The translations under genes and the position numbers were made by a program. Below are positions 1,356 through 27,541 of a stretch of DNA of 64,000 bases, piece by piece. Every line of letters starts with the position of its first letter. Position 1 is the first letter of the stretch. The stretch comes from a virus (lineage: Duplodnaviria; Heunggongvirae; Uroviricota; Caudoviricetes), in the IMG/VR virus record IMGVR_UViG_3300043470_002422; one strand, given 5' to 3'. The notes beneath the pieces were generated by a model that saw only the letters and a list, made by a program, of their open reading frames with translations, had not been told where the DNA came from and searched no databases.

Positions 1356-1748
1356 ATGACAGACCAGGAAATTTTCGACCTAGCCAAAGACCTAGATACT
1401 ATTGGCCACCAACAGAAGGAAATCATCAGGTTTATCTTCTTAGAAAAAAGACAATCTCAAGATGATTGGTTAGATTTTATGCGCCACTTCTCAGGTAAGA
1501 GGTTAATCTCTTTGAGCCACAAATCTGTCTACTCCTCCTTTGCACATTGGTCTCCTGAAGACGAAACCGGATGGGCAGAGAGATACTATAAGGGCAGAAC
1601 TTTAGAAGGACCTTGGGCAGCAGTACTAGAGGAAATCCAAACCATCAAAGACACCTTTCCCCATCTAAAATTTATCATCAGAGAAACGGACGAACATATT
1701 TCTTATCATCGAATAGACGATATTCGTTGTCAAATTTGGACTTTGTAA
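1356..1748 (+). CDS. hypothetical protein
   Basis: ORF immediately preceded by the class A motif. Confidence 0.55.
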   Translation: MTDQEIFDLAKDLDTIGHQQKEIIRFIFLEKRQSQDDWLDFMRHFSGKRLISLSHKSVYSSFAHWSPEDETGWAERYYKGRTLEGPWAAVLEEIQTIKDTFPHLKFIIRETDEHISYHRIDDIRCQIWTL

Positions 1749-2060: not shown

Positions 2061-2381
2061 ATGAGAAAATTACTTATCGCATTCCGCCTTTTCAATTCCA
2101 CCTACGGACCACAAGGCAATCCAAAATCTTTATTCGTTAATCTAAAAGAGGACAACACCCTAGGCTACACCTTCATCGGAGGATGGCAGAACTCAGGAAC
2201 TGGCTTTGCCATTTCAAATCTCCAACTGAAGGAGTCCCTACCACTGGGAGCCAGAAACTTTAAAACCGTCGAAGCTCTCCAGAAGAAAATCGCGGCAATT
2301 CTAGCCACAGGCTGCGGCTCAAACGAAATCAAGACTTTCGAAATTCTAAACGACCTTAACACCATATCTTCAACCAAATAA
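2061..2381 (+). CDS. hypothetical protein
   Basis: Class A motif variant at 2028-2040. Confidence 0.5.
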   Translation: MRKLLIAFRLFNSTYGPQGNPKSLFVNLKEDNTLGYTFIGGWQNSGTGFAISNLQLKESLPLGARNFKTVEALQKKIAAILATGCGSNEIKTFEILNDLNTISSTK

Positions 2382-2389
2382 CAACCACA

Positions 2390-2551
2390 ATGAACAAACC
2401 AACAATGAACAAAGCCCAGCTCCAAGCCAGAATCGTAGAAGGAGCAAGAGAGATGATGAAAGACATGAAAAGACAAGGCCAAAGCCTAACCTTCATGGAA
2501 TGCAAAATGGAAATGGCAAAAGTTTTAAAGGAGAACTTCATCATCATCTAA
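2390..2551 (+). CDS. small hypothetical protein (53 aa)
   Basis: ATG-to-TAA ORF filling the gap between neighbouring genes, below the ORF-track size cutoff. MNKPTMNKAQLQARIVEGAREMMKDMKRQGQSLTFMECKMEMAKVLKENFIII. Confidence 0.3.
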   Translation: MNKPTMNKAQLQARIVEGAREMMKDMKRQGQSLTFMECKMEMAKVLKENFIII

Positions 2552-2552
2552 T

Positions 2553-2717
2553 ATGTCTTTATCACTAATCATCTGGTACATCTTCTGCTTCTTCTACGGA
2601 AACAGAGTTGCGGACTACTTCCTCTCAGACAAACCTAAGAACAAACCAAGAACCATTCTCTTTCTTGTTCTGACCGGAGTCTTCTTCGGAGGGCTAATCT
2701 CACTGTTCTTAAATTAG
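2553..2717 (+). CDS. small two-TM membrane protein (54 aa)
   Basis: ATG 2553 to TAG 2717. Hydrophobic segments IIWYIFCFFY and ILFLVLTGVFFGGLISLF. The TAG stop abuts the class A motif at 2717-2732 and is in frame with the next gene. Confidence 0.35.
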   Translation: MSLSLIIWYIFCFFYGNRVADYFLSDKPKNKPRTILFLVLTGVFFGGLISLFLN

Positions 2718-2732
2718 ACCGTATCTTCTAAC

Positions 2733-3173
2733 ATGAACAGCAACACACCACAAATCATCAACACGGAGAAAATCTACGAAGTGGATTTCATCCAAGGCAG
2801 AAAGGGTCTCTACAGAGCAGTAATAAAAGTCCAAGCAGGCTTCATGACAGTAGTGGACGACATCGGAATCGAGAACAACTGGGGAAGACAAGATTGGAAC
2901 AAAGCCATTGATGTCTTCAGAAACTTCAAGAAGGGAGCTCTCCAAACCATCCAGTTCAAAGCAGAAGGTTCTACCCACTGGACTACCGTCTTCGCCAAAA
3001 AAGGCACCAAGATAGTTCTAATGGACACCCAACTCTTCTTAGACATGGAAGTTGGAGACATCAACCAGAACTGGACCAACACCAACCTCTATAGCCAGAA
3101 GAACTACCAAGCAGCAGGAGCTAAGACTTGGGCAGACAAAGCATTCGTCCTTAACCACCCTAAAGCAGCCTAA
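2733..3173 (+). CDS. hypothetical protein
   Basis: Class A variant GACCGTATCTTCTAAC directly upstream. Confidence 0.55.
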   Translation: MNSNTPQIINTEKIYEVDFIQGRKGLYRAVIKVQAGFMTVVDDIGIENNWGRQDWNKAIDVFRNFKKGALQTIQFKAEGSTHWTTVFAKKGTKIVLMDTQLFLDMEVGDINQNWTNTNLYSQKNYQAAGAKTWADKAFVLNHPKAA

Positions 3174-3175
3174 CC

Positions 3176-3388
3176 ATGATAGAACTTCTAGGCTACCTAG
3201 CAATGACCCTCACAATGCTCTCCTTTGCCTTCTCAGACATGAGAACGCTTAGGGGAGTAAATGTATTGGCTTGTTTACTCTGGATTGTCTACGGGCTTCT
3301 TATGAAGTCAAACCCAATCATCTTCACAAACGTGGCGATAGCTTCGGTTCACATCATCTGGTTCATTAGAAACCGCCGCAAATCATAA
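3176..3388 (+). CDS. small three-TM membrane protein
   Basis: 70 aa with three hydrophobic helices. No assignable family. Confidence 0.45.
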   Translation: MIELLGYLAMTLTMLSFAFSDMRTLRGVNVLACLLWIVYGLLMKSNPIIFTNVAIASVHIIWFIRNRRKS

Positions 3389-3418
3389 CCGTATCTTCTA
3401 ACACAACAACACAGCCAA

Positions 3419-3754
3419 ATGATATTCTCAAACACTCAAATCAAAACAAAGACCATCCTAGTTCGCTTCTACTTCTACTCAGACACAGAAAGAGGTTACG
3501 GAGATGCAGGAACAGCCAAATACTTTAAAATGAAACTTGAAGACTTCTCCATGGTGGAGAACTCCAACTACTCAAGAGGCAAGTACTACACTTACAGACT
3601 CACCGATGAAGCCCACGAGAAAATCCAGAAAGTCTTAGGCAAAAGCTGGGGATATGGAATTGGCTATGAAATGAGAACCGGAAAAGAAAGACAGCTGGAG
3701 ATAATTAAGTTGAGAGCTAAATTGGAAGCTGCAGAAGTAGTAGAAGAAATCTAA
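3419..3754 (+). CDS. hypothetical protein
   Basis: Class A variant at 3387-3402. Confidence 0.5.
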   Translation: MIFSNTQIKTKTILVRFYFYSDTERGYGDAGTAKYFKMKLEDFSMVENSNYSRGKYYTYRLTDEAHEKIQKVLGKSWGYGIGYEMRTGKERQLEIIKLRAKLEAAEVVEEI

Positions 3755-3768
3755 CCGTATATTCTAAT

Positions 3769-3933
3769 ATGAACGAAAAAGAATTTTCCGCCCAAGACAT
3801 GATTGATTTCGCTAGATGGTTTGCAGAAGACGTTGACCAAAAAGAACTTGAAGCTTTCCGAGAAGAGCAGAAGAGAAAAGAAGGAGCTGAGTACCAGAGA
3901 TATTTGGAGTTAAAAGCTAAGTACGAAAAGTAA
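3769..3933 (+). CDS. small hypothetical protein (54 aa)
   Basis: Not in the ORF track because it is under 60 aa. The consensus class A motif at 3753-3768 is immediately followed by ATG 3769, and the ORF ends at TAA 3933. Confidence 0.5.
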   Translation: MNEKEFSAQDMIDFARWFAEDVDQKELEAFREEQKRKEGAEYQRYLELKAKYEK

Positions 3934-4811: not shown

Positions 4812-5126
4812 ATGAACAACCAAACACCAACTCAAGACACTTACATGGGAAGATCAGTTACCAAGAGAGTAACCATCCCAGCCCAGGAAGGCGACTTCCA
4901 AACCTACCGCATGGCGGAGGACATCCTCGAAGGCCAAGGTCATCGCATCGGCAGCATGTGTTCACCTGAGCCAACCGGCTTTGCTCCAGCAGAGGAGTTC
5001 GAGTACATCGCAAAGATGAGAAACATCTCTCCATCTGAGAGACAACTACTTCACGGGGTCATAGCCAGAAAAGGCGGGGACTTCAGAAACGGCGACCTTG
5101 AAATTATTTACTTCCAAACCAAATAA
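4812..5126 (+). CDS. hypothetical protein
   Basis: Class A motif at 4796-4811. Confidence 0.55.
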   Translation: MNNQTPTQDTYMGRSVTKRVTIPAQEGDFQTYRMAEDILEGQGHRIGSMCSPEPTGFAPAEEFEYIAKMRNISPSERQLLHGVIARKGGDFRNGDLEIIYFQTK

Positions 5127-5135
5127 TTTAAGACC

Positions 5136-5393
5136 ATGAGCAACTCAATTTTAAAAGTCATCTTAGGGGTAACCATCTTCTTCTTCATCTTAGTCGTCTT
5201 CACAGCCTGCGAAAAGCAAGCTCAATCCTCAACCATCAAAGGCCACAACATCGAAGTCGAATTCCTCTTCGAGCAAGACTCAGTCAAGGTCTACAGATTC
5301 TATGATGGTTCATACCACTACTTCACCACCAGAGGCGAGACCATGAGCACAAAGACTACAGGCAAAACCTCCCACCAGGAGAACATCAAATAA
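5136..5393 (+). CDS. small putative lipoprotein / membrane protein
   Basis: N-terminal signal or TM segment ending in FTAC (lipobox-like). Confidence 0.45.
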   Translation: MSNSILKVILGVTIFFFILVVFTACEKQAQSSTIKGHNIEVEFLFEQDSVKVYRFYDGSYHYFTTRGETMSTKTTGKTSHQENIK

Positions 5394-5394
5394 A

Positions 5395-5680
5395 GACATT
5401 GTGTGTGTTGTTAAACTTAGGTCCCTCCGGGGACCTTTGTTGTGGAGTAGGGGCTAGTAAAAGGACCCCTCCAGGGTCTGTGTGTAATAGAGAGGGCCCT
5501 CCAGGGAGTGGAGGGGGACCTAATTAGGGGTCCTATTAGGGGGTTAAGGGCCCCTTATATAAGGGGTACCTTGGAGGGGGTCCTGTAACGCTGAGGGGAC
5601 CCCTACAGGGGAGATTCAAGGGGGGGCCTCACGTAGGGGGTCTGTTGGTGGCAGGTCCAGACGCTCAGCGAAGTCCAATT
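5395..5680. repeat. GC-rich G-tract and palindrome island inside an AT-rich genome
   Basis: More than 15 runs of GGGG or longer. Inverted repeats of the AGGTCCC...GGGACCT type and a perfect 16-bp palindrome CCCCTTATATAAGGGG centred on the class B core. Confidence 0.6.
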
Positions 5681-5773
5681 GGATTTCCAGGTAGTCCACT
5701 TGGGATTCTTCATAGCTTTCCTAGTCTTTCCTGGTCTTTCCTGGTTCTCCACCCTAATCTCCTTCCACAGTAG

Positions 5774-5784
5774 AATATATAGGC
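5774..5784 (+). promoter_or_regulatory. Class B motif (GAATATATAGG) 2 nt before ATG 5787
   Basis: Same GGATATATAAG-type element as upstream of the other MKH-leader genes. Confidence 0.5.
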
Positions 5785-5786
5785 AC

Positions 5787-6587
5787 ATGAAGCACATCCT
5801 AGCCTTTCCCCTATTTGAATCCGTGTCCTTGACTCCAGACCAGAAAGTCTTTCTGGAAATGTGTATGGAGAACACCAATCTCAATTCCAAGTTTGTCCAA
5901 GACCCTGCAACAGGCAAGGTGACAACTCTGGGCAAATTCGATGCCCAGTACTATTACGAATCAAGACCAAACTCCGATAAGCAGAAGATCAGGGATCTGT
6001 TTAACTCCATTCCCTTTGGAGTAGCAGAAGGGAACTTCTCAGTCAGAGGGATGTACTTGGACGCTATGGTCAATTTCCCATCTTCAGTAGAAGGAACTTT
6101 GTCCCTCAGCAGGAACTCCCTGCTAACCTTGGAGGGAATACCTAAGATGATCTATAAGGATTTGAGTCTTGAAGACAATCACCTCATCTCTCTAGAAGGC
6201 ATGGAAGAGACAGAAGTTAGAGGAACCATCTGGTTTGCAGACAACTGGATCAGAGGTCTCTGGTTGAGAGAAGATCTGACCAGAGCCAAAGCCATTGGCA
6301 CTTGGGTTCCAATCTATCTGGACATCCTCTCAGGAGAGACCTCGTTCAGTGGGATTCCAAATCCCAACGAGCAGGAAGAGGCAAAGGCATTCATCATGGA
6401 GAAGAAGACGACAAAGGCTCAGATGGAAGAAGCCATCAGGGTGGCACCAGCAGAGATGACTGTGGCTCTCAGCAGAAAGCGGACTATGCCTCAGGAGATG
6501 CAAGATCTACTTCCGACACTGAATGTTCCTGAAGGATTCTGGGATGCTCCTGATCTCATGGGGGATCTGGAGGGAGTAGGACTGTAG
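5787..6587 (+). CDS. CTS-like-leader family protein with LRR-like 22-aa repeats and a C-terminal DLEGVGL
   Basis: Real start is ATG 5787 (MKHILAFPLFES); the ORF-track start at 5679 is an alternative upstream start. Internal repeats of the form N-x-L-x-x-L-E-G-x-P. Ends GDLEGVGL. Confidence 0.6.
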   Translation: MKHILAFPLFESVSLTPDQKVFLEMCMENTNLNSKFVQDPATGKVTTLGKFDAQYYYESRPNSDKQKIRDLFNSIPFGVAEGNFSVRGMYLDAMVNFPSSVEGTLSLSRNSLLTLEGIPKMIYKDLSLEDNHLISLEGMEETEVRGTIWFADNWIRGLWLREDLTRAKAIGTWVPIYLDILSGETSFSGIPNPNEQEEAKAFIMEKKTTKAQMEEAIRVAPAEMTVALSRKRTMPQEMQDLLPTLNVPEGFWDAPDLMGDLEGVGL

Positions 6588-6605
6588 ATGTTTCCGTACC
6601 AGTGA

Positions 6606-6618
6606 GGGATATATAAAC
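6606..6618 (+). promoter_or_regulatory. Class B motif GGGATATATAAAC
   Basis: Upstream of the ferritin-like gene. Confidence 0.5.
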
Positions 6619-6634
6619 CAAAATTTAACACCCA

Positions 6635-7246
6635 ATGGCAACACTAAAAGAATTCTTAACTATGAGAGAGAACATGGAAATCCAAGCAATTGAGGTTCCT
6701 GGTCTTGAACTGCCTGCTCAGACTTCCGAGCCTGTAGTAGTAGGATCAGGAGTGCCTAAACCAAAGACTCTGTCATCAGAGATCATCTCGGCTTTAGAAG
6801 CAAGACTCAAAGATGAATACACAGCTCACTACACATACCGTAACGCAGCCAACTGGTGCAAGAACATGAACTATAAGGCAGCAGCAGCCTACTTCGAAGG
6901 CGAAGCAGCAGAGGAGTTAGAACACGCAGCTGGACTTCAGGATTACATGACCCAGTGGAACTGTTTACCACAGATCCCACCTGTAACTGTGCCTAACGAG
7001 TTTACCTCTCTTGTGCATATCATAGGACATGCCTACACTATCGAGTATGATCTGCTTCAGAAGTACTCTGCACTTCAAAGGGCCTTTGATGCTGCTCATC
7101 CTGCTACATTCAATTTCATTCAGAAGTATGTAGACATTCAGAATGAGTCTGTTGCTAGCTACTCTGATCTCCTAAATGCTCTTGAGCTCATTAACATTGA
7201 TTCCAAGCTAGACATTCTAATCTTCGAAGGAAGATATTTCGGATAA
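6635..7246 (+). CDS. ferritin-like protein with an N-terminal extension
   Basis: Di-iron ferritin signature spacing EYTAHYTY...AAEELEHAAGLQDY...TIEYDL...IQNESV. Confidence 0.6.
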   Translation: MATLKEFLTMRENMEIQAIEVPGLELPAQTSEPVVVGSGVPKPKTLSSEIISALEARLKDEYTAHYTYRNAANWCKNMNYKAAAAYFEGEAAEELEHAAGLQDYMTQWNCLPQIPPVTVPNEFTSLVHIIGHAYTIEYDLLQKYSALQRAFDAAHPATFNFIQKYVDIQNESVASYSDLLNALELINIDSKLDILIFEGRYFG

Positions 7247-7268
7247 TCTTATAACACAAACACAACAC

Positions 7269-7300
7269 GAAGGTGTCTCTACTAGGGGCACCTTCTTTGT
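7269..7300 (+). terminator. Hairpin (GAAGGTG ... CACCTTC) followed by a T-rich tract
   Basis: 7-bp stem with a 13-nt loop, then TTTGTGTGT. Confidence 0.35.
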
Positions 7301-7458
7301 GTGTCCTAGTCTTATATGTAGAATGGATTGGGGTGCCGCCGGGAGGGGATGTAAACCCAAAATTTGGGCCTGAGCTTGGGAGGCCCTAGGGGGATCGGGA
7401 GCAAAACTCAGGGGCAGGGCCCAGCGCGCTTTAAAGCACATGATTGACATTGCCTGCA

Positions 7459-7470
7459 GGGATATATAAG
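7459..7470 (+). promoter_or_regulatory. Class B motif GGGATATATAAG 3 nt before ATG 7474
   Basis: Consensus copy. Confidence 0.55.
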
Positions 7471-7473
7471 CGA

Positions 7474-8301
7474 ATGAAGCACTTGCAGACATATAGCATC
7501 TTTGAATCCAAGACGGTACTGACTGAAGACCAGGAGACGTTCTTGTCTCTCTTCGTCGAACCTCTTGAGAATTCGAAGGGGATGCCTGGGACTTGGTCCG
7601 TCAACCCAAAAACCGGCTTGGTTGACGTCAATGGAAACTTTGAGTGCCCACAAAGGGGATTGAAGGACTTTAAGGGAATCTCCTTTGGCCATGTGAGTGG
7701 AGCCTTTGACTGCGATCGAAACGAACTTGTCAGCTTGAAGGGTGCACCTCAGTTGGTGAGAGATTTCTCCTGCGATCGAAATGACCTTGTCAGTCTCGAG
7801 GGAGCACCTCAGTTTGTCAGGGGAGGCTTCTACTGCAACACCAATAGGCTGAAGAACTTAAAAGGTGGCCCGGTAGAAGTGGGAGGGGATTTCTCCTGCG
7901 TTGGCAATGACCTCAAGACCTTGGAGGGAAGTCCAAGAACGGTGGGAGGGGATTTCTACTGCTATTCAAATTCAACTTCTCTTATCTCTTTAGCAGGGGC
8001 TCCAGAAACAATCGGTGGGACTTTTCACTGCGACTGGTTTGAACTTTCCAACTGGGGGGTTCCTGGCCTGCTGGAGACCATCAAGAAGGTCAACCCCAAA
8101 GCTCAGAAGATGATTTTGGACCTCCTGACTCCTGAGAAAATACAGCAGACGATTGACAGAGAGCCTGAGAAGATGGCTGTTGAATTAAAGGGGGTTTGGA
8201 AGACCCTGAAGGCGGATCCAAAATATGCAGGGCTAAAATTTCCAGAAGGAATCCAAGGGGATGCAGAGATGCTGTCAGACCTGGACGACGTTGGTCTTTA
8301 A
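7474..8301 (+). CDS. CTS-like-leader family protein with six LRR-like 22-aa repeats and a C-terminal DLDDVGL
   Basis: ATG 7474 (MKHLQTYSIFES). Repeats of the form C-D-R-N-x-L-V-S-L-x-G-A-P-Q-x-V. Ends LSDLDDVGL. Confidence 0.65.
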   Translation: MKHLQTYSIFESKTVLTEDQETFLSLFVEPLENSKGMPGTWSVNPKTGLVDVNGNFECPQRGLKDFKGISFGHVSGAFDCDRNELVSLKGAPQLVRDFSCDRNDLVSLEGAPQFVRGGFYCNTNRLKNLKGGPVEVGGDFSCVGNDLKTLEGSPRTVGGDFYCYSNSTSLISLAGAPETIGGTFHCDWFELSNWGVPGLLETIKKVNPKAQKMILDLLTPEKIQQTIDREPEKMAVELKGVWKTLKADPKYAGLKFPEGIQGDAEMLSDLDDVGL

Positions 8302-8312
8302 GGATATATAAG
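8301..8312 (+). promoter_or_regulatory. Class B motif AGGATATATAAG
   Basis: Immediately 5' of ATG 8315. Confidence 0.55.
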
Positions 8313-8314
8313 AC

Positions 8315-9199
8315 ATGAAGCACCTACAAACTTATCGTCGATTTGAATCTCAGCATGCCCTGAATGAAGGGGATGAATATCGCAAGATGAACATGGACTA
8401 CCTCTTGAACAAATTTACTCGAGTTCCAAACAACGGGAAGTTGTACAACCCTTCGGAGGAAGACTTTGCAGATCTGCCTTGGTATCAAGCCTTGAAGGGG
8501 GCATTTCCAGATTTCAAACTGGAGAGGGTCAGAAAGAAAGGGAATGGCTACTCTTGGTTCTTCCCTGGGCCAAAACCCAAACCTCAGGCTTTCTACGAGG
8601 TTTTCAGAGAAGGTGACAGAGACTCCCCCTCTGAAGAGCCGGCCAAGATTGTATTCAACAACGATTTAATGACTTCATCTCAGACGTTCACAATTTTACT
8701 CAACGATAAAGAGTCTTGGAATGAGCTCTTTAAGCTGCTCTATTTTGCCCAGTTTGAAGGAAAAATATCAGGACCTACTTGGAGGGGATTAAAACACATT
8801 ATGGAACTCTTCTCTTCGGATTTGGAGTCTTTTTACAAGACCGGAAATCTGGGAATAGTTGGAGTGAAAAAGGATTGCAACCCTTATGGAGGACACTACG
8901 AGTCCTCAGTTGATTTTCTGAAGAACCTTCCTTATGGCATCTTTGATGATCTGAAGGCTGGATTTGTCAAGAAGATGAAAGAAGATCCTGCGGAGATTCA
9001 GTATGCAATTTCTCAGTGTCAACTTCCGAAAGGAACAGCAGAGACCGTATTTGGCACAGCTAGACTCTACCCAGAAAATGAGGTGCTGAACTTCTACAAT
9101 CTGATGAAGCAAGAAGGTTATGTTCCACCGGCCGGATTTGACGAAGAAACTGGGGAAATTTCAGATATACACAAATCTCTAGGGGACATCGGTCTGTAG
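8315..9199 (+). CDS. CTS-like-leader family protein, C-terminal LGDIGL
   Basis: MKHLQTYRRFES leader. Ends SLGDIGL at a TAG stop. Confidence 0.6.
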   Translation: MKHLQTYRRFESQHALNEGDEYRKMNMDYLLNKFTRVPNNGKLYNPSEEDFADLPWYQALKGAFPDFKLERVRKKGNGYSWFFPGPKPKPQAFYEVFREGDRDSPSEEPAKIVFNNDLMTSSQTFTILLNDKESWNELFKLLYFAQFEGKISGPTWRGLKHIMELFSSDLESFYKTGNLGIVGVKKDCNPYGGHYESSVDFLKNLPYGIFDDLKAGFVKKMKEDPAEIQYAISQCQLPKGTAETVFGTARLYPENEVLNFYNLMKQEGYVPPAGFDEETGEISDIHKSLGDIGL

Positions 9200-9210
9200 C
9201 ATATAAGGAC

Positions 9211-9252
9211 ATGAAGCACATAAAACTATTTGAAGACTACTCAGACGAAGAT
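9211..9252 (+). repeat. 42-nt exact direct repeat (second copy at 9786-9827)
   Basis: atgaagcacataaaactatttgaagactactcagacgaaga is identical at both positions. Confidence 0.8.
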
Positions 9253-9789
9253 TTAGCAGGACTAATGTCCGATCTAGATGGGGTTGGTCTTATGAATAAA
9301 GTAATTGTTAGCTTCGGGGAAAAAATTCCAATTCCTCAAGAGGTGACCCATCCATCTTGGTGGGCAGAGCCTTGGGGGAAATTTGCCATCGTGGAGATTT
9401 ACACTCCAGAGAAAGGTCCAAAGGCAGAACAACTGGCTTTCGAAAAAATTAAAAAGGGAGACTTCACTCAAGATTTATCGAAATTAGATACTGATGCTTA
9501 CAAGAACAGAATTTCCAACATTCTGAAGTTTTTTAGTTCGGAGAGAATTCAGAAGGAAGCTCAAGAATCTCGGGACGTGGTGGAATTCAAAACTCGAATT
9601 CACGAAAAGTCGGGACAGATCCTATTTAACGAATGGGAAGGTATAGTCGAGAAATATCTCGAAGGAAAATCTGAAGATTATGCGAAAGAATTTTTCAACA
9701 CGCTTTGGAAATCCACCCCCAAATCAGCCAAGCAAGAGATTGCCGGATCCACAGCAATAAAAGTTTTGCAAACCGAAGTAAATAAATGA
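9211..9789 (+). CDS. CTS-like-leader family protein, N-terminal MKHIKLFEDYSDE...SDLDGVGL
   Basis: Leader plus the DLxxVGL motif within the first 27 aa. Paralog of the next gene. Confidence 0.6.
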   Translation: MKHIKLFEDYSDEDLAGLMSDLDGVGLMNKVIVSFGEKIPIPQEVTHPSWWAEPWGKFAIVEIYTPEKGPKAEQLAFEKIKKGDFTQDLSKLDTDAYKNRISNILKFFSSERIQKEAQESRDVVEFKTRIHEKSGQILFNEWEGIVEKYLEGKSEDYAKEFFNTLWKSTPKSAKQEIAGSTAIKVLQTEVNK

Positions 9790-10358
9790 AGCACATAAAA
9801 CTATTTGAAGACTACTCAGACGAAGAAATCAAGTCCCTCATGGGGGACCTTGCCGAGGTTGGTCTGGGAAAGAAATGGAGGGTTGTTGGATCAATATCCA
9901 CAGTTACCCCAGAAGTCAACTACTATAGAAACTGGGAAGAACAAGTCCATGAGGTTTTCATTGTGGAAGTTGCTGCAGATTCAGAGAAGACGGCATATTT
10001 AGAGGCCTTTGAAAAACTTAAATCTGGAGACTTCACTCAGAAACTTTCAGATGAAATGGAAAAATGGAATAACGTTCTGAATAAAATTCCAGAGGTGGGA
10101 AAAATTCTTTCCAAAGACAACATCATCAAAGCTGCTAATGGAAAGGCAAATCAGCAGCCAATGGAGAGGAAGGACATTACAGGAAATCCAATCTATGACG
10201 GAAAAATTAGATGGGTCATGACTGTTGATCTTGTGGGTCCGACTGAAGAGGCAATTCTAAATAAGATAAAGTCCATGACAGGAGGTGTTGTTAGCCCAGA
10301 GATGGAGGAATTTGTTAACGAAAATGTGGGTTGGAACTTAAGAGCAGAAGAAATATGA
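9786..10358 (+). CDS. CTS-like-leader family protein, tandem paralog
   Basis: MKHIKLFEDYSDEEIKSLMGDLAEVGL. Shares AFEKxKxGDFTQ with the upstream gene. The ATGA start and stop overlap. Confidence 0.6.
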   Translation: MKHIKLFEDYSDEEIKSLMGDLAEVGLGKKWRVVGSISTVTPEVNYYRNWEEQVHEVFIVEVAADSEKTAYLEAFEKLKSGDFTQKLSDEMEKWNNVLNKIPEVGKILSKDNIIKAANGKANQQPMERKDITGNPIYDGKIRWVMTVDLVGPTEEAILNKIKSMTGGVVSPEMEEFVNENVGWNLRAEEI

Positions 10359-10426
10359 GACGCTTAAAGTCATATAAAATATTCGAGGCTAATAAGCCTA
10401 CAAGTCTATAACAATCGAAATTTATT

Positions 10427-10442
10427 TACCGTATCTTTCTAT
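10427..10442 (+). promoter_or_regulatory. Class A variant TACCGTATCTTTCTAT
   Basis: Upstream of ATG 10451. Confidence 0.45.
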
Positions 10443-10450
10443 AACATAAT

Positions 10451-11110
10451 ATGGAAGATCAAGAATTGTGGGATCTCATGGGAGACCTTGAAGACGTTGG
10501 GCTTGGAGATAGTATCACCAAGGCTTATTCGATTACGGGATTTTATGAAGATGGGGAAGAGCATCTCGACAACGACATTTTGACTGCTAATATCTTGAAT
10601 GCTTTTATTGAAGTCAATGAATCAGATGGGGCTGATTTATTTCTTGACAAACTAGACGAGCCAAAATCTCCTCATATGGACCCTTTAGTTTCCTCCTGGT
10701 TTGGTGACAACTACCTTATAATCAAAGGAAACTTCACCAGGGTTAGATCAGTCGAAGAAAGGCTAAGAAAAGAGTTTGTAATCGAAAAAGAGGTTGAGCT
10801 TAAAGACTATAAAAAATTAGAGCTTAGTGGAAGTTCCGGATCTTACGGTGCGACTGGAATTTCAGGAACTCCTGGAATTTCAGGAACGACTGGATATGCT
10901 GGAACTACCACGGTTGTATATTCTTCCCCAGGATTGAGCGGGTCTTGGTCCACCTCAGGAGTAACGGTTTCTGTCTCAACTCCAAAGATGATCCAAACTT
11001 CTGTCAAGATCGAAATGCCGATCAGGGAGCTAAAAGATCCACCAGAAGATGAGGTTGAGACCTACGGACATCCTCTTTGGGAAAAGATTAAAGGTAAACT
11101 AGGATTCTAA
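10451..11110 (+). CDS. protein with an N-terminal GDLEDVGL motif and a Gly/Ser/Thr collagen-like low-complexity stretch
   Basis: MEDQELWDLMGDLEDVGLGD, then GATGISGTPGISGTTGYAGTT. Confidence 0.55.
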   Translation: MEDQELWDLMGDLEDVGLGDSITKAYSITGFYEDGEEHLDNDILTANILNAFIEVNESDGADLFLDKLDEPKSPHMDPLVSSWFGDNYLIIKGNFTRVRSVEERLRKEFVIEKEVELKDYKKLELSGSSGSYGATGISGTPGISGTTGYAGTTTVVYSSPGLSGSWSTSGVTVSVSTPKMIQTSVKIEMPIRELKDPPEDEVETYGHPLWEKIKGKLGF

Positions 11111-11125
11111 ACCGTATATTCTAAT
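11111..11125 (+). promoter_or_regulatory. Class A motif ACCGTATATTCTAAT overlapping the start region
   Basis: Consensus copy. Confidence 0.55.
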
Positions 11126-11651
11126 GAATATGACAACTCAAGAATTTATAAAATTTTGCAAACATCAACACGATGTAGAATGCAACCAAAAGTATGGAAA
11201 GATCCATCCTTATTCCTTTCACCTTGATCTAGTAGCTACCCAAGCTAAAAAGTTCGAAGAACTCCTAGGTGATTTTGATCTAGACCTAGATAAAACAATT
11301 ATGGCATCATGCTACGGTCACGATCTGATCGAAGATGCCAGAGTTACCTACAACGATATCAAAGAAATGGTGGGAGAGAAGATCGCAGATATTATCTACT
11401 GTTGCACCGAAGAGAAAGGTAAAAACAGAGATCAAAGACACAGTGAGAAGTATTTTGCCGAACTGAAAGAAAACGAACTTGCAATCTTCGTTAAACTTTG
11501 CGACATCACTGCCAATGTTAAATATTCTCTTTTAACAGACTCTGGAATGTTTAAAAAATACAGAAAAGAATTTCCTAAAGTTAAAGAACATCTTTACGTA
11601 GAGAAATTCAAACCCCTGTTTGACCACCTAGAATCAATCCTTTCAATCTAA
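11124..11651 (+). CDS. HD-domain phosphohydrolase, small dNTPase-like
   Basis: H...HD...D spacing with FHLDLV and CYGHDLIEDARV. 175 aa. Confidence 0.55.
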   Translation: MNMTTQEFIKFCKHQHDVECNQKYGKIHPYSFHLDLVATQAKKFEELLGDFDLDLDKTIMASCYGHDLIEDARVTYNDIKEMVGEKIADIIYCCTEEKGKNRDQRHSEKYFAELKENELAIFVKLCDITANVKYSLLTDSGMFKKYRKEFPKVKEHLYVEKFKPLFDHLESILSI

Positions 11652-11655
11652 TCAT

Positions 11656-12027
11656 ATGAACCAAGAATTTTTATGGCTATTTATTCTGTTGATCCACTTC
11701 TTAGGAGACTTTGGACTTCAGACTCACGATCAAGCAACTAATAAATCCTCTAGTGACAAATGGCTATTTTACCACGTTGGAGTTTACTCTATCATCTGGT
11801 TCCTTGCAACCTGGATTTGGTTCGGAGCTGCAGATAAAGCATTTGCTTTTGCCATCACAACTTTCGTCTTTCACTTTCTAACAGACTTTGCAACCTCTAG
11901 GATAGGTAAGCCTTTCTGGGAGAACAAGGACTTTCACAATGGATTTGTAGTGGTTGGATTCGATCAAATTCTACACTACATTCAGCTTTATTTAACTTTT
12001 TCCCTTATTTCATCTCAAATGATCTAA
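11656..12027 (+). CDS. multi-pass membrane protein
   Basis: Three to four hydrophobic helices. Confidence 0.45.
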   Translation: MNQEFLWLFILLIHFLGDFGLQTHDQATNKSSSDKWLFYHVGVYSIIWFLATWIWFGAADKAFAFAITTFVFHFLTDFATSRIGKPFWENKDFHNGFVVVGFDQILHYIQLYLTFSLISSQMI

Positions 12028-15813: not shown

Positions 15814-18800
15814 ATGGCTCAAAAGTATTTGAGCAAAGCTTTGGCTTTCGCTTTAACCTTGTTTGCAACACAAGGAAATCTTCATGCAGCATGCGGGAAT
15901 CTCACACCGAGTTTCAGTAATGCATCCAACAAAACCTGTGGTATACCTCAGGTAATTACACTTACCAATACTTCCACTGGAAACAGTCGAAATGTAGCCA
16001 CCTACAAGTGGTATGTGGGTACCACACTGCTGAGCACACAAGTTGGCAAATCCACCCAAAAATACACCATCAACACTGCAGGTAGCTATACCTTCAAGTT
16101 GGTGGCGATAGATACGGGTAAGGTGGGCTGTAAAGACAGCACAAGCACTACCATTACCATTTCGGCATCTGTTCCGAGAATTTTGGATGGCAATAGAGTA
16201 AATACCTATTCTCCCATTTGGGAAAATTGTATAAGTTCATTGGGGGTTCCTGACACCTTTGGTATAAATATCAAACCTCAGGATTCATTGCGAAATTACA
16301 CCATAGTTTGGGGGGATGGCACCGGTAATTCTACTGGCACTTTACTGCTTAGCAGCCAATCCCTCTACCATAAGTATAATTCACTAGGACAATTTACTTT
16401 ATTAATCATCGGAACAAAGGGAAGTTGCACTGATACCCTTCGAGGTGTGGTGTCGAATGAAAGAAATCCTGTGGCTGGAATTGTGGGTCCACCAACAGGA
16501 ACCAATGCAGGTTGTGTGCCCATTCGCATGCGTTTTATCAATAACTCTTCCTTAAGCTCACCTAGCACCACTTTTACCTGGGATTTTGGCAATGGCGAAA
16601 CCATAGTAAGGGGATTCAATACCCACAAAGACACTTTATTTTATACCTATAAGCGCTTTTTGTGTAATGGCATCGTGAAACTTACTCAAACCAATAATTG
16701 TGGTTCGAGTTTTGCCACCTGGAACCCAATCATGGCTTCCTCTAAGGATACTGCCATTATTGCGCCGACCAATCCGACCAACTGCGATCTTGCTGTACCT
16801 TTTACGTTTAACAATACCTCTCAAAATCGTTTTTGTAGCACGCCAAACAATAAGAAATACCTCTGGGTTTGGGGCGACGGAACCAATTCTGGTTGGAGTA
16901 CTTCTTCTGCTTCGCAGTCTAAAACCTACAGCAAGCGCGGTGTGTACCAGGTCTTGCTGATTGATTCAAATGGCTGCGGTAAAGATACTGCAAGGTATAC
17001 CTTGCGTATCGATAGCATGCCTACCATTTCTGCAGGCCCAGCGTCGGCTGCAGGATGCTCACCTTTGGTGGTAAACTTCAGAGACAACAGCATAAATGCA
17101 ACTTCTAGAAATTGGGATTTTGGATATGCAACACCAACAAGCAGTGCGCAAAACCCAACCCATACCTATCAAACAGGTGGTACATATAGAGCAGTGCTGA
17201 CAGTAGCCAACAATTGTGGATCATTAAAAGATACTGTCCTTATTACTGTCAAACAAAAAGTAAAGGCAAACTTCAATACACCGCTTACTGGCTGTGCTCC
17301 ATTAACACAGAAATGGACCAATACATCTGTCAAAGGATTGGCAGGAACCCCTACATATTTCTGGGATTTTGGGGACGGAACAACTTCTACCCAGGTGAAT
17401 CCTCCAGATAAAACTTACTCTACGTTAGGGACATATACCATTACACTCATTGCTACAGACTCATGCGGTAAGGATACCATTAAAAAGACGTTTACCGTCC
17501 GTGGTAAGCCCTCTGCTACAATTACTTTGTTATCTTCAAGCCGGTGTGTGGGCAGCACTTTAGATATTCGCTTTGTAACCTCACCCGTAAATACAGCTTC
17601 AGTTATCTGGGGTGATGGAACCAATGGCAGCAGTTATTTCGGATTGGGTGGTTCAGTTGACCGCACGGTTTCCAGAAAATACGACAGTCTGCGCACCTAC
17701 AGATTTGGGGTAGTTATGGTGGATCCAAGCGGTTGCCGAGACACCAATTACCTAAACATTGCAATGGATCCAAGGCCTACGATGAACTATACCTACACCA
17801 CAACCAATGGTTGTGGTCCTTTGGATGTTACATTTACCAATACCAGTGCGCACAATGGAGGGGGTAACATCAACCAAATGAAGTTCTTATGGAACTTTAG
17901 TAATGGTATATTGGCTTACAGCAAAGATACTGCAGCTAGGTTCTTGCCGTTTAAAACAAGAGACTCTATTTATCCCGTTAAATTAATTGGAACAAACGCC
18001 TTTGGCTGCAGAGATTCCATTACCAAAACGGTTCGAGTTTATCCAAAACCATTGAGTAAATTTAGTATTAGTGAAAAGGATGGTTGTGCACCTTTGGATA
18101 TTACTACTACGAACAATTCTACTCCATATGACACGGGTTCTATAAACATAATGAAGTTTATATGGGACTTTGGCAACGGCAGGAAAGCGTTTGGTAAAGA
18201 TACTGCTGCTCGATTCTTAGCCAGTAAAACAAAAGATACTGTGTATACTGTTAGTCTGATATCTATTTCTGAACATGGTTGCCGAGATACCAGTTCAACC
18301 ACAGTGCGTATTTATCCAAAACCTAAAGCCTTATTTACCAGAAGTAAAACTGAAGGTTGCAAACCACTCGGGGTTACCTATGTCAACCAAAGTGTACCCT
18401 ACGATACCGGCAATATATCAATAATGAGTTTTGCTTGGGATTTAGGAAATAGAATTACCTCATTCGCTACAGAACCTGTGGGTATCTATAATGATGCGAT
18501 AAACAAAGATACTACTTATAAGGTACGTTTGATTGCCACTAGTGAGCACGGATGCAAGGATACTGCAAATTCCACTGTACTGTTACATCCGAATCCGGTG
18601 ATTAAATTTGATATGAGCCGCACCAATGGCTGCGGTCCATTGCCTGTGAGCTTCTCGAACAAGAGCATCAACGGCGATGCATTTACTTGGGAGTTTGGCG
18701 TATATGGAACTGATACCGCAAAGAGTCCTAGTAAGGTATTCTATGGCCGCGATATTTTTGACTCAGTAGTAGTGGTGAAGCTTAGCGCGATGAGCAAATT

Positions 18801-20907
18801 TGGCTGCTTGAGTGATACGCTAAAAGACGAAGTGACGGTTTTTGGATTACCTATTGCCAACTATCTAGTTTCAACAGATACCTTCTGTTTCCCTGACCTG
18901 ACGCAGTTTTTGAACCAAAGTTTGGCTTCCTACAACTACACTTGGGATTTGGGCGATGGCACTGTAACAGGAACTACAAACCCCAAACATTTCTTCAAGA
19001 AAAGCTCAAGTCCATTTAGTGATACTACCTATTTCATCAAACTTGTTGCTACAAGCCCTTACGGATGTAAGGACACCGCAAACGGCAGTATGACCGTATT
19101 GCCTTACCCTATTCCAAAATTCAGTGTTGACAATCCTGCGGGTTGTGCGTCACACACAGTGAAGTTCAACAACCAGTCGGTAAACGTGTTGAATTACCTG
19201 TGGGTATTTGGAGATGGATATACATCAACCGATGTGAACCCTACCCATACCTTTATAAATACCGGTGCGAATGATACGGCGTATCAGGTTGTTCTTTATA
19301 CCTACTCTTTGGATTGTGTAGACTCTACTAGTATTTGGATACCAGTTTACAAGCCCTCGTATTCATTCTTCAGAACGGACCGGGTAAATCCATGTGATGC
19401 TGGATATTTTAAATTCCAGAGCTTTGGCGAAAATGCGCCAATTGTGAAGTACAATTTTGGTGATGGTAGCACATCAACTTTTCCCAACCTAACGCATTTA
19501 TTCCCAACCTCACCTTACACCGATACAAGCTTCATCGTTACACTATACACCACAAGCAATCGCGGTTGCACAGACAGCTTTAAACGCACAGTTACGCTCC
19601 CACAGCGACTTTCTATCGGAATGAAAGACACCAGTTATGCGCTATGTGCTCCGACGGTAATTCAGTTTACAAACTACACAAGGGGTGCACGCACATATAT
19701 TTGGGACTTTGGAGATAATGGAGGAAGTTCTCAGAAGAACCCAATTTATGAATACCAAAAACCGGGCTTATACGCATATAAGTTGTTTGCCTTTGACGCA
19801 AATGGGTGTATTGACAGTCAGGTTTCAAACGGCACTGTTCGTGTGGATGTGAGTCCTAAAGCGGATTTTGACTTTAGTCCTGGTAAAGGCCGCATGCCAA
19901 ATGACAACCGTATTTTCTTTACTGACAAGAGCCGCAGTGTGATACCACTGACCTATTTCTGGGATTTCTCGGATCCAGCGGGTATACCTGCAACGAGTAC
20001 GATTCAAAATGCAACCCACGATTTTAGCGACTCTGGAGACTATAAAATCTGTTTGACGGTAGATAATGGGGGTTGTAAGAATATATTTTGCAATTTTGTA
20101 CGCATCGATCCGGCATTTCCAACCCCAGATTTCTCGGTGGGTGGGGATTCGGGTTGCCCACCTCTTACCGTGCAGTTTACCAACCTTTCTGTGAACTCTG
20201 ACCGCTATATATGGTTCTTTGGTGACGGTGAAAGAAGCGAGGACAAAGACCCAGTCCATACCTATAAGTACAGCGGATATTACGACGTGATTTTGATCGC
20301 AAAAGGTCCAGGGGGTGAGGGTAAAACGGAGAAGAAGCAGTTCATAAAAGTATTGAATGCACCATTCACGTATTTCAATCTCACGCCCTCTATATTGTAC
20401 CTTCCTGATGCCAAATTCACAACTCGAAACCTGACTACTGGAGCTGTAGGATATCAGTGGAATGTGTACAACAGCAGCACTAGAAATCGAGTTGGGAATA
20501 GCCTTTTGGTGAATCCCTATTTCCAAGTAAACGATACGGGGCATTATGATGTGGAATTGATTTCAGTAAGCAGTCAGGTCTGTTATGATACCCTATTGTT
20601 GCCCAAGCCCATCTACGTGAATCCACGTGGCATATTGCATGTACCGGATGCCTTCACACCTACCAATGATGAACGCAACGATGTGTTTAAACCAAGCGCG
20701 ATAAACGTGCAAAAGGATTTCTATCTCTTCCAGATCTATAACAGATGGGGTGAAATCGTATTCGAAACCAAAGACCCCGATGAGGGTTGGGACGGCCGTA
20801 AAAAGGGCAAAATATGCCAAAGTGGAGTCTATGTATATAAAATCAATGCAAGACTCTTCAGCGGGGATGATATTTCAGCGGATGGTGTGGTTCACTTGAT
20901 TCGATAG
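15814..20907 (+). CDS. giant secreted protein (1697 aa) with PKD/Ig-like repeats and a CHU_C-type T9SS (gliding-motility-associated) C-terminal domain
   Basis: Signal peptide MAQKYLSKALAFALTLFATQGNLHAAC. At least 15 repeats of the W-D-F-G-D-G-T type. C-terminus VPDAFTPTNDERNDVFKP...IYNRWGEIVFE...GWDGR...GVYVYKI matches the TIGR04131-type CTD. GC content is higher than the surrounding genes. Confidence 0.75.
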   Translation: MAQKYLSKALAFALTLFATQGNLHAACGNLTPSFSNASNKTCGIPQVITLTNTSTGNSRNVATYKWYVGTTLLSTQVGKSTQKYTINTAGSYTFKLVAIDTGKVGCKDSTSTTITISASVPRILDGNRVNTYSPIWENCISSLGVPDTFGINIKPQDSLRNYTIVWGDGTGNSTGTLLLSSQSLYHKYNSLGQFTLLIIGTKGSCTDTLRGVVSNERNPVAGIVGPPTGTNAGCVPIRMRFINNSSLSSPSTTFTWDFGNGETIVRGFNTHKDTLFYTYKRFLCNGIVKLTQTNNCGSSFATWNPIMASSKDTAIIAPTNPTNCDLAVPFTFNNTSQNRFCSTPNNKKYLWVWGDGTNSGWSTSSASQSKTYSKRGVYQVLLIDSNGCGKDTARYTLRIDSMPTISAGPASAAGCSPLVVNFRDNSINATSRNWDFGYATPTSSAQNPTHTYQTGGTYRAVLTVANNCGSLKDTVLITVKQKVKANFNTPLTGCAPLTQKWTNTSVKGLAGTPTYFWDFGDGTTSTQVNPPDKTYSTLGTYTITLIATDSCGKDTIKKTFTVRGKPSATITLLSSSRCVGSTLDIRFVTSPVNTASVIWGDGTNGSSYFGLGGSVDRTVSRKYDSLRTYRFGVVMVDPSGCRDTNYLNIAMDPRPTMNYTYTTTNGCGPLDVTFTNTSAHNGGGNINQMKFLWNFSNGILAYSKDTAARFLPFKTRDSIYPVKLIGTNAFGCRDSITKTVRVYPKPLSKFSISEKDGCAPLDITTTNNSTPYDTGSINIMKFIWDFGNGRKAFGKDTAARFLASKTKDTVYTVSLISISEHGCRDTSSTTVRIYPKPKALFTRSKTEGCKPLGVTYVNQSVPYDTGNISIMSFAWDLGNRITSFATEPVGIYNDAINKDTTYKVRLIATSEHGCKDTANSTVLLHPNPVIKFDMSRTNGCGPLPVSFSNKSINGDAFTWEFGVYGTDTAKSPSKVFYGRDIFDSVVVVKLSAMSKFGCLSDTLKDEVTVFGLPIANYLVSTDTFCFPDLTQFLNQSLASYNYTWDLGDGTVTGTTNPKHFFKKSSSPFSDTTYFIKLVATSPYGCKDTANGSMTVLPYPIPKFSVDNPAGCASHTVKFNNQSVNVLNYLWVFGDGYTSTDVNPTHTFINTGANDTAYQVVLYTYSLDCVDSTSIWIPVYKPSYSFFRTDRVNPCDAGYFKFQSFGENAPIVKYNFGDGSTSTFPNLTHLFPTSPYTDTSFIVTLYTTSNRGCTDSFKRTVTLPQRLSIGMKDTSYALCAPTVIQFTNYTRGARTYIWDFGDNGGSSQKNPIYEYQKPGLYAYKLFAFDANGCIDSQVSNGTVRVDVSPKADFDFSPGKGRMPNDNRIFFTDKSRSVIPLTYFWDFSDPAGIPATSTIQNATHDFSDSGDYKICLTVDNGGCKNIFCNFVRIDPAFPTPDFSVGGDSGCPPLTVQFTNLSVNSDRYIWFFGDGERSEDKDPVHTYKYSGYYDVILIAKGPGGEGKTEKKQFIKVLNAPFTYFNLTPSILYLPDAKFTTRNLTTGAVGYQWNVYNSSTRNRVGNSLLVNPYFQVNDTGHYDVELISVSSQVCYDTLLLPKPIYVNPRGILHVPDAFTPTNDERNDVFKPSAINVQKDFYLFQIYNRWGEIVFETKDPDEGWDGRKKGKICQSGVYVYKINARLFSGDDISADGVVHLIR

Positions 20908-21350: not shown

Positions 21351-22253
21351 ATGTTACAATTAAATTTAGCAGACTCAGATAAGTCACAGATCAAATTTAA
21401 ACCATCTGCATTTCCAGACGGCCAGCAATCAATCACTTTAGCTCTGTCCACAATCTCAGATCTAGAAATATCTTGCACAATCAAGTCCAGATTAAATTCT
21501 TTCAGGGATTTAGAACTCATAGTCTGCGCAGCAGCTGCATTGAGAGAAGCTGGAATGGAAAGAATTCACCTTTATATTCCATACTGTCTAGGCGGAAGAT
21601 CTGACATCAAATTTGAAGAAGGTGGCTTAAACTACATCAAGAGTGTAATTGCACCTATCATCAATTTACAAAAATTTACTTCTGTTACCGTCATGGATGC
21701 TCACTCGATAGCTCTAGAAAATTGCATTGATAATTTGAAAAAGCTAGACAATTCTTATCTTGCAAAATGGGCAATCAAGGATCTATCTTCAGAAGGAGGA
21801 GATTTCAAATTGGTCTCTCCTGATGCTGGAGCACTAAAGAAAATATTCTCAACAGCTAAATCTATCGGATATAAAGGAGAAATAATAGTTGCTGAAAAAG
21901 TTAGAGATTTATCTACCGGAAAAATTATTCACACCAAGGTACCTATAAACGTTTATGATGCAGATAAAGATTTTATCATTATAGATGATATCTGTGACGG
22001 TGGGAGAACATTCATAGAAATCGCCAAGGCTATAGAAGAAATGAGATCTTTAAGTTCAGTGGTTCATCCAGATAAGCACGGAAAAAATTACCTTATCGTA
22101 ACTCACGGCATCTTCAGCGCAGGATTTGAAGAACTTAGTAAATATTTTGATAGAATTTATACCACCAATTCTATCTCCGAAATAAACGAGTCTGAAAATT
22201 ACAAAGGTGCTGAATTTGATAAACAATTTGTTAAACAACTAAACGTATTCTAA
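21351..22253 (+). CDS. ribose-phosphate pyrophosphokinase (PRPP synthetase) family protein; candidate ADP-ribose diphosphokinase (Adps-like)
   Basis: PRTase motifs VMDAHS..., LVSPDAGALKK and IIIDDICDGGRTF. ATG 21351 follows the motif. Confidence 0.65.
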   Translation: MLQLNLADSDKSQIKFKPSAFPDGQQSITLALSTISDLEISCTIKSRLNSFRDLELIVCAAAALREAGMERIHLYIPYCLGGRSDIKFEEGGLNYIKSVIAPIINLQKFTSVTVMDAHSIALENCIDNLKKLDNSYLAKWAIKDLSSEGGDFKLVSPDAGALKKIFSTAKSIGYKGEIIVAEKVRDLSTGKIIHTKVPINVYDADKDFIIIDDICDGGRTFIEIAKAIEEMRSLSSVVHPDKHGKNYLIVTHGIFSAGFEELSKYFDRIYTTNSISEINESENYKGAEFDKQFVKQLNVF

Positions 22254-22254
22254 A

Positions 22255-23249: not shown

Positions 23250-23269
23250 ATTAAATAAAATAAAATATC

Positions 23270-23629: not shown

Positions 23630-23634
23630 TCCGT

Positions 23635-26892: not shown

Positions 26893-26906
26893 CCGTATAT
26901 TTAAAT
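26891..26906 (+). promoter_or_regulatory. Class A variant AACCGTATATTTAAAT
   Basis: Upstream of ATG 26918. Confidence 0.5.
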
Positions 26907-26917
26907 AAAATACCTTT

Positions 26918-27361: not shown

Positions 27362-27541
27362 TTAAGAAAATGAAAATGAACCCAAAAGAAAAAGAATTGG
27401 AAAATATCCAATCCCAACAAAACCCTTCAAAAGAGGTTAATCCAACCGAGTCTGTAATAATAAAACAGATCGAGGATGATTTTGAATATCAAGAATATTA
27501 TTCAGAAAATTCTCCTAATTTCGACGTAGATTAATCAGGAG

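Follow-up and report, generated by a model that had tools for sequence, protein, structure and literature searches.

In a 64,000-nucleotide stretch of the viral record IMGVR_UViG_3300043470_002422 (Caudoviricetes), hereafter the window, a short peptide of the form DLxxVGL recurs at the chain ends and domain boundaries of otherwise unrelated proteins, and we refer to it as the tail. The tail motif is non-random, conserved and previously undescribed; it is portable between protein contexts, selected at the level of the peptide and spelled in a genome-specific way. On balance, we consider it probable that the tail is a portable docking peptide through which diversifying proteins all attach to a single partner that the same genome encodes. 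It would act as a helix with a hydrophobic-Gly-hydrophobic tip, docking from the terminus of a chain or from the border between domains, and would tether its carriers, mostly leucine-rich repeat (LRR) binders together with at least three other cores, to the shared partner. That the tail binds in trans, and what it binds, we infer from the evidence below.

Motif copies and the architecture of their carriers

A six-frame scan of the window found seven exact copies of DLxxVGL and one variant, LGDIGL, all in long open reading frames (ORFs) of the plus strand, with zero copies of DLxxVGL in other frames or on the opposite strand. An earlier note on this DNA had claimed eight copies, and every one was recovered at its position in a real plus-strand gene. 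From amino-acid composition, 0.029 copies of DLxxVGL are expected in the approximately 90 non-overlapping ORFs of the window versus the seven observed, and 2000 within-protein shuffles gave a mean of 0.0185 copies and a maximum of one, so the recurrence is not explained by chance. Between the copies, the codons for Leu, Asp, Val and Gly vary and most synonymous sites differ, indicating that selection acts on the peptide, as the earlier note had argued and as conservation across hundreds of metagenomic homologues bears out. The full tail unit spans about 17 residues, in which a run of acidic residues precedes Phi-x-x-[LM]-[LMI]-[GSA]-D-L-x-x-V-G-L (Phi, a hydrophobic residue). The carriers are named by the first nucleotide of their genes, and several of them also begin with a second conserved peptide, the leader:

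5787-6587, plus strand: LRR-like family gene, 266 aa; leader MKHILAFPLFES (5787-5822); C-terminal tail PDLMGDLEGVGL, ending in DLEGVGL (6564-6584)
7474-8301, plus strand: LRR family gene, 275 aa; leader MKHLQTYSIFES (7474-7509); C-terminal tail AEMLSDLDDVGL, ending in DLDDVGL (8278-8298)
8315-9199, plus strand: family gene with no recognisable LRR, 294 aa; leader MKHLQTYRRFES; degenerate C-terminal tail SLGDIGL (LGDIGL at 9179-9196)
9211-9789, plus strand: 192 aa; leader MKHIKLFEDYSDE directly before tail DLAGLMSDLDGVGL (DLDGVGL, residues 21-27, 9271-9291), then a folded domain
9786-10358, plus strand: 190 aa, paralogue of 9211; leader and tail (DLAEVGL, residues 21-27, 9846-9866), then an alpha/beta domain of unknown fold
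10451-11110, plus strand: 219 aa, tail-first and leaderless (MEDQELWDLMGDLEDVGL; DLEDVGL, residues 12-18, 10484-10504); Gly-rich, collagen-like middle GSSGSYGATGISGTPGISGTTGYAGTT; C-terminus KLGF
38341-39453, plus strand: LRR family gene, 370 aa; degenerate leader MAKTLLPFALYEE; C-terminal tail AELLADLDDVGL, ending in DLDDVGL (39430-39450)
39461-39991, plus strand: 176 aa; leader MKYLELFEAFN, insert of about 60 aa, internal tail DELDELISDLTSVGL (DLTSVGL, 39701-39721), second domain
1356-1748, plus strand: 130 aa; a ninth, degenerate motif copy opens the gene (MTDQEIFDLAKDLDTIGH)

The motif occupies at least four contexts: it ends the LRR-plus-helical domain and the 8315 protein, precedes the 9211/9786 domain at the N-terminus, and separates the two domains of 39461. 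The paralogues 9211 and 9786 are only 29% identical overall, and an hhalign comparison of 39461 with the 9786 family found similarity confined to the motif region. The C-terminal carriers are mostly LRR proteins, a relationship that the earlier note had missed, together with the leader and an upstream DNA box. Their repeat of 22 residues, NxLxSLxGxPxxVxGxFxC, is predicted by AlphaFold2 (AF2) to form a beta-solenoid, and in Foldseek the LRR core of four carriers matched IpaH, SspH1 and YopM together with giant-virus LRR proteins weakly (E about 0.1 in PDB). Membership in the LRR class is thus supported by the repeats, AF2 and Foldseek, while Pfam returned nothing for the window proteins.

Along the chain the modules always follow one order: leader, optional cargo, tail and optional further domain. 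In the LRR carriers, the LRR and the helical domain form the cargo, with the leader before it and the tail after it; in 9211 and 9786 the leader abuts the tail and the domain comes after it; in 39461 one domain is inserted between leader and tail and a second follows the tail; and the proteins of 10451 and 1356 lack a leader and open with the tail at Met1. Because this order is fixed, the switching between N- and C-terminal positions that had been described is better seen as a single architecture with the cargo placed differently, although both positions do occur.

The AF2 model of 7474 (mean predicted local distance difference test, pLDDT, 92.5) shows a disordered leader (pLDDT about 50), the LRR solenoid, the helical C-terminal domain, a conserved loop, a tail helix at residues 258-272 and the final VGL. 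In the model of 9786, residues 1-8 have a pLDDT below 50, the motif helix at residues 12-24 reaches 60-67, and a confident alpha/beta domain begins at residue 30. The best-conserved stretch of this protein is the least confidently folded one, a combination typical of peptides that become ordered only when bound.

Conservation and genome-specific spelling of the tail

A search with gene 7474 retrieved 443 metagenomic relatives. Among the best 120 of these, 104 carry the leader, 88 carry the tail at the exact C-terminus and 81 carry both. A profile of the last 60 residues matched 166 clusters among 1.84 billion representative proteins, with nearly all matches reaching the final residue. The 9786 family is small (22 clusters), and its first 27 residues are almost invariant. 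Absence from related phages, which would have spoken against the motif, was therefore not observed, since homologues there carry it. On the syntenic 391-kb contig L006, the orthologs retain the motif in every gene: that of 5787 ends in DLMTDLDDVGL, that of 8315 in ALGDIGL, and that of 9211 keeps both leader and tail behind a GTG start. The 10451 protein, whose domain is weakly similar to the 9786 family, also has an ortholog in L006.

The spelling of the tail changes from genome to genome. It is DLxxVGL in the window and in L006, GFDELGLF in L005, DLQRAGIF in L008, DLRDLGI in L009, DLxDLGF in L010 and NLDRVGF in L011. The KLGF end of the 10451 protein resembles the DLGF end of the L010 variant. 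The LRR paralogues of L005 terminate in SGFDELGLF, and an unrelated 9211-like gene of that genome has SGFEELGI after its leader, written with different codons. This parallel SGF-[DE]ELG change with different codons argues for co-evolution with one partner and not for gene conversion.

L005 also contains an array of ten tandem paralogues whose junction DNA is nearly identical and whose synonymous codon identity is 0.8-0.95 in the C-terminal third versus 0.6-0.7 elsewhere, a pattern that points to gene conversion among the tandem copies. Such conversion cannot explain the copies in the window or the cross-family case in L005, because their codons differ. The earlier suggestion that the motif marks a module boundary promoting in-frame shuffling is therefore matched by the higher C-terminal identity of this array, but what acts there is ordinary gene conversion, and the codon differences elsewhere do not fit it.

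Pfam and PHROGs gave nothing significant for any of the carriers, Pfam gave nothing for 35 further tail-bearing proteins, and blastn of positions 5000-12000 against isolated phages found no match. A profile search of a word-indexed database with the 40-residue leader-plus-tail module returned only three candidates, and an IMG/VR search with a single family protein returned only LRR-core relatives without leader or tail. Neither peptide is present in the LRR homologues of isolated Vibrio jumbo phages or of megaphage LR756501. In an unrelated jumbo phage, Vibrio phage VB_VaC_TDDLMA (L007), a DnaB-like helicase encoded at 2233-3789 ends in NNDLDDLYAELGL, which is acidic with a Leu-Gly-Leu end; judging by this sequence, the likeness may be a coincidence or may represent a more general type of docking tail.

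The leader and the upstream box

Six carriers begin at Met1 with a well-formed leader: MKHLQTYxxFES in 5787, 7474 and 8315, MKHIKLFEDYS in 9211 and 9786, and MKYLELFEAFN in 39461. That of 38341 is a degenerate version. The leader is 11-13 residues long, with the consensus forms MKH[LI]xx[FY]x[LIV]FE[SA] (type A) or MKHIKLFEDYS (MKHIKLFEDYSDE), and all 136 type-A leaders have [LIV]-[FY]-E at positions 9-11 and then S, A or T as the next residue. No hydrophobic signal peptide was found at the N-terminus of the carriers. Using a DNA pattern for MKH-x-K-[LF]-F-[ED], we surveyed metagenome contigs and obtained matches in at least 120 contigs, comprising at least 149 genes and at least 133 distinct proteins. 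Positions beyond the search pattern are also conserved (F10, [IVL]11, N12, E13 and a small residue 14), giving the wider consensus MKH[IVL]KLFExF[IVL]NE[GAS]. The contigs are marine and freshwater phage-like sequences, often with several tandem genes each, and the leader-bearing proteins are unrelated to one another, including P-loop kinases, an AAA ATPase, a hydrolase and another LRR protein. A 462-kb megaphage has variants of the leader, for example MKFLKSYEEFLNE. The leader is thus a module separate from the tail and much wider in distribution. A literature search on the strings MKHIKLFE, MKHLKLFE, MKHVKLFE, MKHLQTF and MKHLKTF found no paper with any of them in the library searched. Three further genes of the window bear a leader or a leader-like start without a tail:

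43936-44328, plus strand: leader-only protein (MKNIKFFEDFNSE), 130 aa, no tail; isoelectric point (pI) 4.06, net charge about -36, Asp/Glu run at the C-terminus
52165-52464: leader-only gene (MKNLALYESFTES)
6635-7246: ferritin-like gene inside the family cluster; leader-like N-terminal extension of about 50 residues starting MATLKEFLTMRE; family box upstream; no tail

The box in question is GATATATARG (GATATATA[AG]G), which lies 3-5 nt upstream of the ATG of family genes and is conserved before every family gene in L005, L006, L009 and L010. For other genes, including the ferritin gene, it lies 19-24 nt upstream, and for MoxR 36 nt. Its copies in the window are:

5775-5783, plus strand: box ATATATAGG, 3 nt before the ATG of 5787
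7462-7470 and 8304-8312, plus strand: boxes before 7474 and 8315
9199-9207, plus strand: box variant CATATAAGG before 9211
38311-38319, plus strand: box 21 nt before 38341
6608, 43908, 48626 and 51093, plus strand: further boxes
47312, 48109, 54095 and 43917, minus strand: further boxes

The box is promoter-like, and a position so near the ATG could give leaderless mRNAs. Five window genes share exactly the opening codons ATG AAG CAC even though the GC content is 37%, and in tandem genes the leader begins 15 nt after the preceding tail. The conserved leader and the upstream box together back the starts at 5787 and 7474 that had been chosen over upstream TTG codons. Gene 43936 and the MoxR operon are transcribed divergently from a common GATATATATC box.

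Lineage, possible partners and alternative explanations

The window is an accessory-gene region encoding ferritin, phosphoribosyl pyrophosphate (PRPP) synthetase, a NAMPT-like phosphoribosyltransferase, NADAR and macro-domain proteins, MTHFR, tRNA nucleotidyltransferase and a ClpB/ClpA-like ATPase (48965-51094). Two loci bear on its lineage and host:

40329-43873, minus strand: operon of VWA-like DUF2201, DUF2201_N metallopeptidase (KOW motif, GDKPGDMP repeats) and MoxR AAA+, flanked by leader/tail genes
15814-20907: 1697-aa protein carrying eight or more PKD domains together with a CHU_C sorting domain for type IX secretion

The MoxR-DUF2201 neighbourhood recurs in the divergent genome L010 (12811-16324), again flanked by leader/tail genes. 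Group 2 jumbo phages, as defined by Iyer et al., are T4-related and have gp23, gp20 and gp21 orthologs, and their subgroup 2.2 includes phages of Bacteroidetes and has a MoxR-vWA-metallopeptidase system with a proposed role in virion assembly (PMC7824862). Taking the MoxR/DUF2201 cluster as a lineage marker, we infer that the window phage belongs to group 2.2, and with this assignment a gp21-type prohead protease is likely in this phage. The closest relatives of one window protein belong to jumbo phages, among them RsoM2USA, XacN1, Tenacibaculum pT24 and GAP32. Genes for sigma-70-type factors, a family B polymerase and a T4-type RNA ligase are present on related contigs, and L008 encodes ClpP. 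The PKD protein, through its CHU_C domain, suggests a Bacteroidota host; at the equivalent place in L006 there is a Por_Secre_tail protein. Elsewhere in the window, an NAD+/ADP-ribose cluster (21351-29101) contains PRPP synthetase, a macro/DarG-like gene (22728), a divergent adenylosuccinate-synthetase-like gene (24516), NADAR (25571) and a nicotinate/nicotinamide phosphoribosyltransferase (27572), and may be a counter-defence module. Assignment of 24516 as PurZ was rejected, as its score fell well short of the cut-offs for PurA and PurZ alike.

If the tail docks on a partner, candidates can be ranked as follows: prohead or virion machinery, the family's own LRR domains, the adjacent MoxR-vWA-peptidase system, and the ClpB/ClpA-like AAA+ ATPase. 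The prohead or virion assembly machinery is our leading guess, drawn by analogy, with the family being packaged and co-injected; it was placed first on the strength of the leader's likeness to that of T4, the lineage and the tandem arrangement, in which each gene has a promoter-like box of its own. In T4, residues 4 and 7 of the capsid-targeting sequence (CTS) MKTYQEFIAE determine targeting, the prohead protease cuts after L/I-X-E, and Alt loses propeptides from both termini. The present family resembles the T4 proteins with a CTS, the internal proteins IPI-III and Alt, in that short chain-end peptides are common to unrelated, fast-diversifying proteins of variable tandem loci. Such a peptide starting from Met1 was found here on the LRR proteins, 8315, 9211/9786, 39461, 43936 and 52165. 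The leader also fits MK-x-Phi4-x-x-[FY]7 and ends in [LIV]-x-E plus a small residue, as T4 MKTYQEFIAE is followed by A after the cut, a match of sequence only. [VILM]-x-E occurs within residues 9-16 of 65 of 133 leader proteins compared with 9 of 131 for a control stretch, among the matches listed. The likeness concerns the leader and not the tail, for which the T4 literature on CTS and Alt shows no DLxxVGL counterpart. The carriers differ further from T4 internal proteins in being acidic and known from genes alone, and the leader occurs on enzymes as well. A search for an L/I-x-E protease site upstream of the tail found none that was consistent. Of the readings proposed earlier, a docking or processing signal fits best.

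Two other kinds of terminal peptide offer partial parallels. Encapsulin cargo-loading peptides, such as LxIGSL or LTVGSLRR at the cargo C-terminus, are likewise short, mostly C-terminal and sometimes N-terminal, have a Leu...[VI]-G...Leu core and address diverse cargo inside an HK97-fold shell; the ferritin-like gene (6635-7246) inside the family cluster adds to the resemblance, but this ferritin is tail-less. The spacing also differs, L-x-x-V-G-L here against L-x-[VI]-G-S-L, as does the shape, an AF2 helix against an extended peptide. The encapsulin consensus L-x-[IV]-G-S-L was not found and GSL occurs in no tail variant, nor did Pfam/PHROGs detect an HK97-fold shell gene among the window proteins scanned. 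Replication hubs are bound through motifs such as the beta-clamp QL[SD]LF/QLxLxL, T4 gp45-binding tails and the acidic SSB tip DDDIPF, which are similarly acidic-plus-hydrophobic peptides, placed at the extreme C-terminus or sometimes the N-terminus and shared by many proteins binding one hub, and the L005 end ELGLF resembles QLGLF. However, DLxxVGL has D at position 4 and no Q-L, ELGLF of L005 being the only variant near QL[SD]LF or QLxLxL; the carriers are LRR proteins or have unknown domains instead of being replication enzymes, and the window holds no clamp gene.

The LRR solenoid core and the diversifying family are features shared with the effectors IpaH, SspH and YopM and with giant-virus LRR proteins, although the present proteins have no E3 ligase or effector domain and the conserved terminal peptides were not found in those families. 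A diversifying LRR gene family suggests target binding in host-virus conflict. The tail is not a type IX secretion C-terminal domain, being about 17 residues and helical versus a 70-100-residue beta-sandwich with a signal peptide, and the only true CHU_C domain in the window is that of the PKD protein.

Several observations weigh against a docking peptide or against its capsid version. The tail helix of 7474 is predicted with confidence (pLDDT about 94), which agrees with an exposed helix and equally with a packed one, so in the LRR proteins it may pack on its own chain. The helical hydrophobic moment of the tail is no higher than in shuffled sequences, and the label of amphipathic helix was dropped since the moment is not significant. 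Covariation across unrelated protein types comes from one genome, L005, and Pfam/PHROG scans found no structural genes in the 64-kb window. As for capsid packaging, the box of the family genes also stands upstream of metabolic genes, the leader occurs on ordinary-looking enzymes and on about 10% of genes, it is independent of the tail (a tail follows in 2 of 149 leader genes among the matches listed), and the family proteins have a pI of 4.4-5.4, against basic T4 internal proteins. We regard as doubtful the fuller proposal of a two-part address code in T4-related Bacteroidota jumbo phages and many aquatic phages. Under that proposal, a protease-removable leader, MKH-Phi-K-L-F-E-x-F-Phi-N-E cut before a small residue, would route proteins into the prohead, and a genome-specific tail of the DLxxVGL type would dock a subset, mainly the diversifying LRR binders, on one capsid or assembly component, to be co-injected as anti-host effectors.

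Among the rival explanations, the tail could bind the LRR domains of the family itself, or the leader of the next protein, and family members and tail-bearing non-LRR proteins would thereby form chains or hetero-oligomers, in the manner of the docking domains of polyketide synthases and non-ribosomal peptide synthetases. LRR solenoids are peptide-binding scaffolds, LRR paralogues occur at every tail-bearing locus, the tail variants are genome-specific, and tandem genes place a leader 15 nt after a tail; yet the co-occurrence is biased because the searches were seeded with LRR proteins, pairing of leader with tail is unlikely because the leader is near-constant between genomes while the tail varies and many leaders have no tail, and AF2 models place the leader confidently against nothing. 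We therefore hold such self-assembly to be rather unlikely. Quite unlikely, in our judgement, is an intramolecular role, in which the helix and VGL would be the end helix of a neighbouring domain, derived from one ancestral gene and spread by recombination with no partner in trans. The confident helix at 258-272 is what this would predict, and LRR tails always accompany the conserved helical C-terminal domain, but D, L, V, G and L stay invariant beside at least four different neighbouring folds, confidence in the motif is low in the 9786 model, 10451 and 1356 bear the motif at Met1, and the parallel spelling change with different codons struck two unrelated protein types in L005.

An improbable reading is that the tail is a degradation or adaptor tag delivering its carrier, or a target bound by the LRR, to a phage AAA+ protease or chaperone. 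Clp-type machines recognise substrates by terminal tags, and candidate machines are encoded, namely the ClpB/ClpA-like ATPase at 48965-51094, ClpP in the related L008 and the MoxR-vWA-metallopeptidase system beside 38341 and 39461; moreover, LRR-tail genes adjoin the MoxR cluster in two divergent genomes. The tail is nevertheless unlike known Clp tags such as C-terminal LAA, it also works from internal positions, and the MoxR adjacency may be inherited gene order. Highly improbable, finally, is that the DNA itself is the selected element, a tail-stop-box-leader junction serving as a recombination cassette for in-frame shuffling and expansion, as proposed for T-even internal-protein loci, with the conserved peptide a by-product. 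The near-identical junctions and the raised C-terminal identity of the ten L005 paralogues agree with it; the window copies, however, differ at most synonymous sites, conservation at the protein level extends across hundreds of divergent homologues, and the motif is retained in 38341 and 39461, which lie outside an array.

A short chain-end peptide that directs many unrelated proteins to a single machine is a powerful tool: the T4 CTS has been used for packaging foreign proteins in capsids and encapsulin tags for loading nanocompartments. Of the two conserved peptides described here, one extends across hundreds and the other across well over a hundred uncultured aquatic phage proteins, and neither has a database model. 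The partner of the tail, if found, would explain the tandem arrays of diversifying LRR proteins in jumbo phages and would give an engineering tag. If the leader is a true capsid-targeting propeptide, the ejected proteins ('injectome') of uncultured phages would become predictable from sequence, and if the two-part code holds, the phage would co-inject a customisable set of anti-host effectors.

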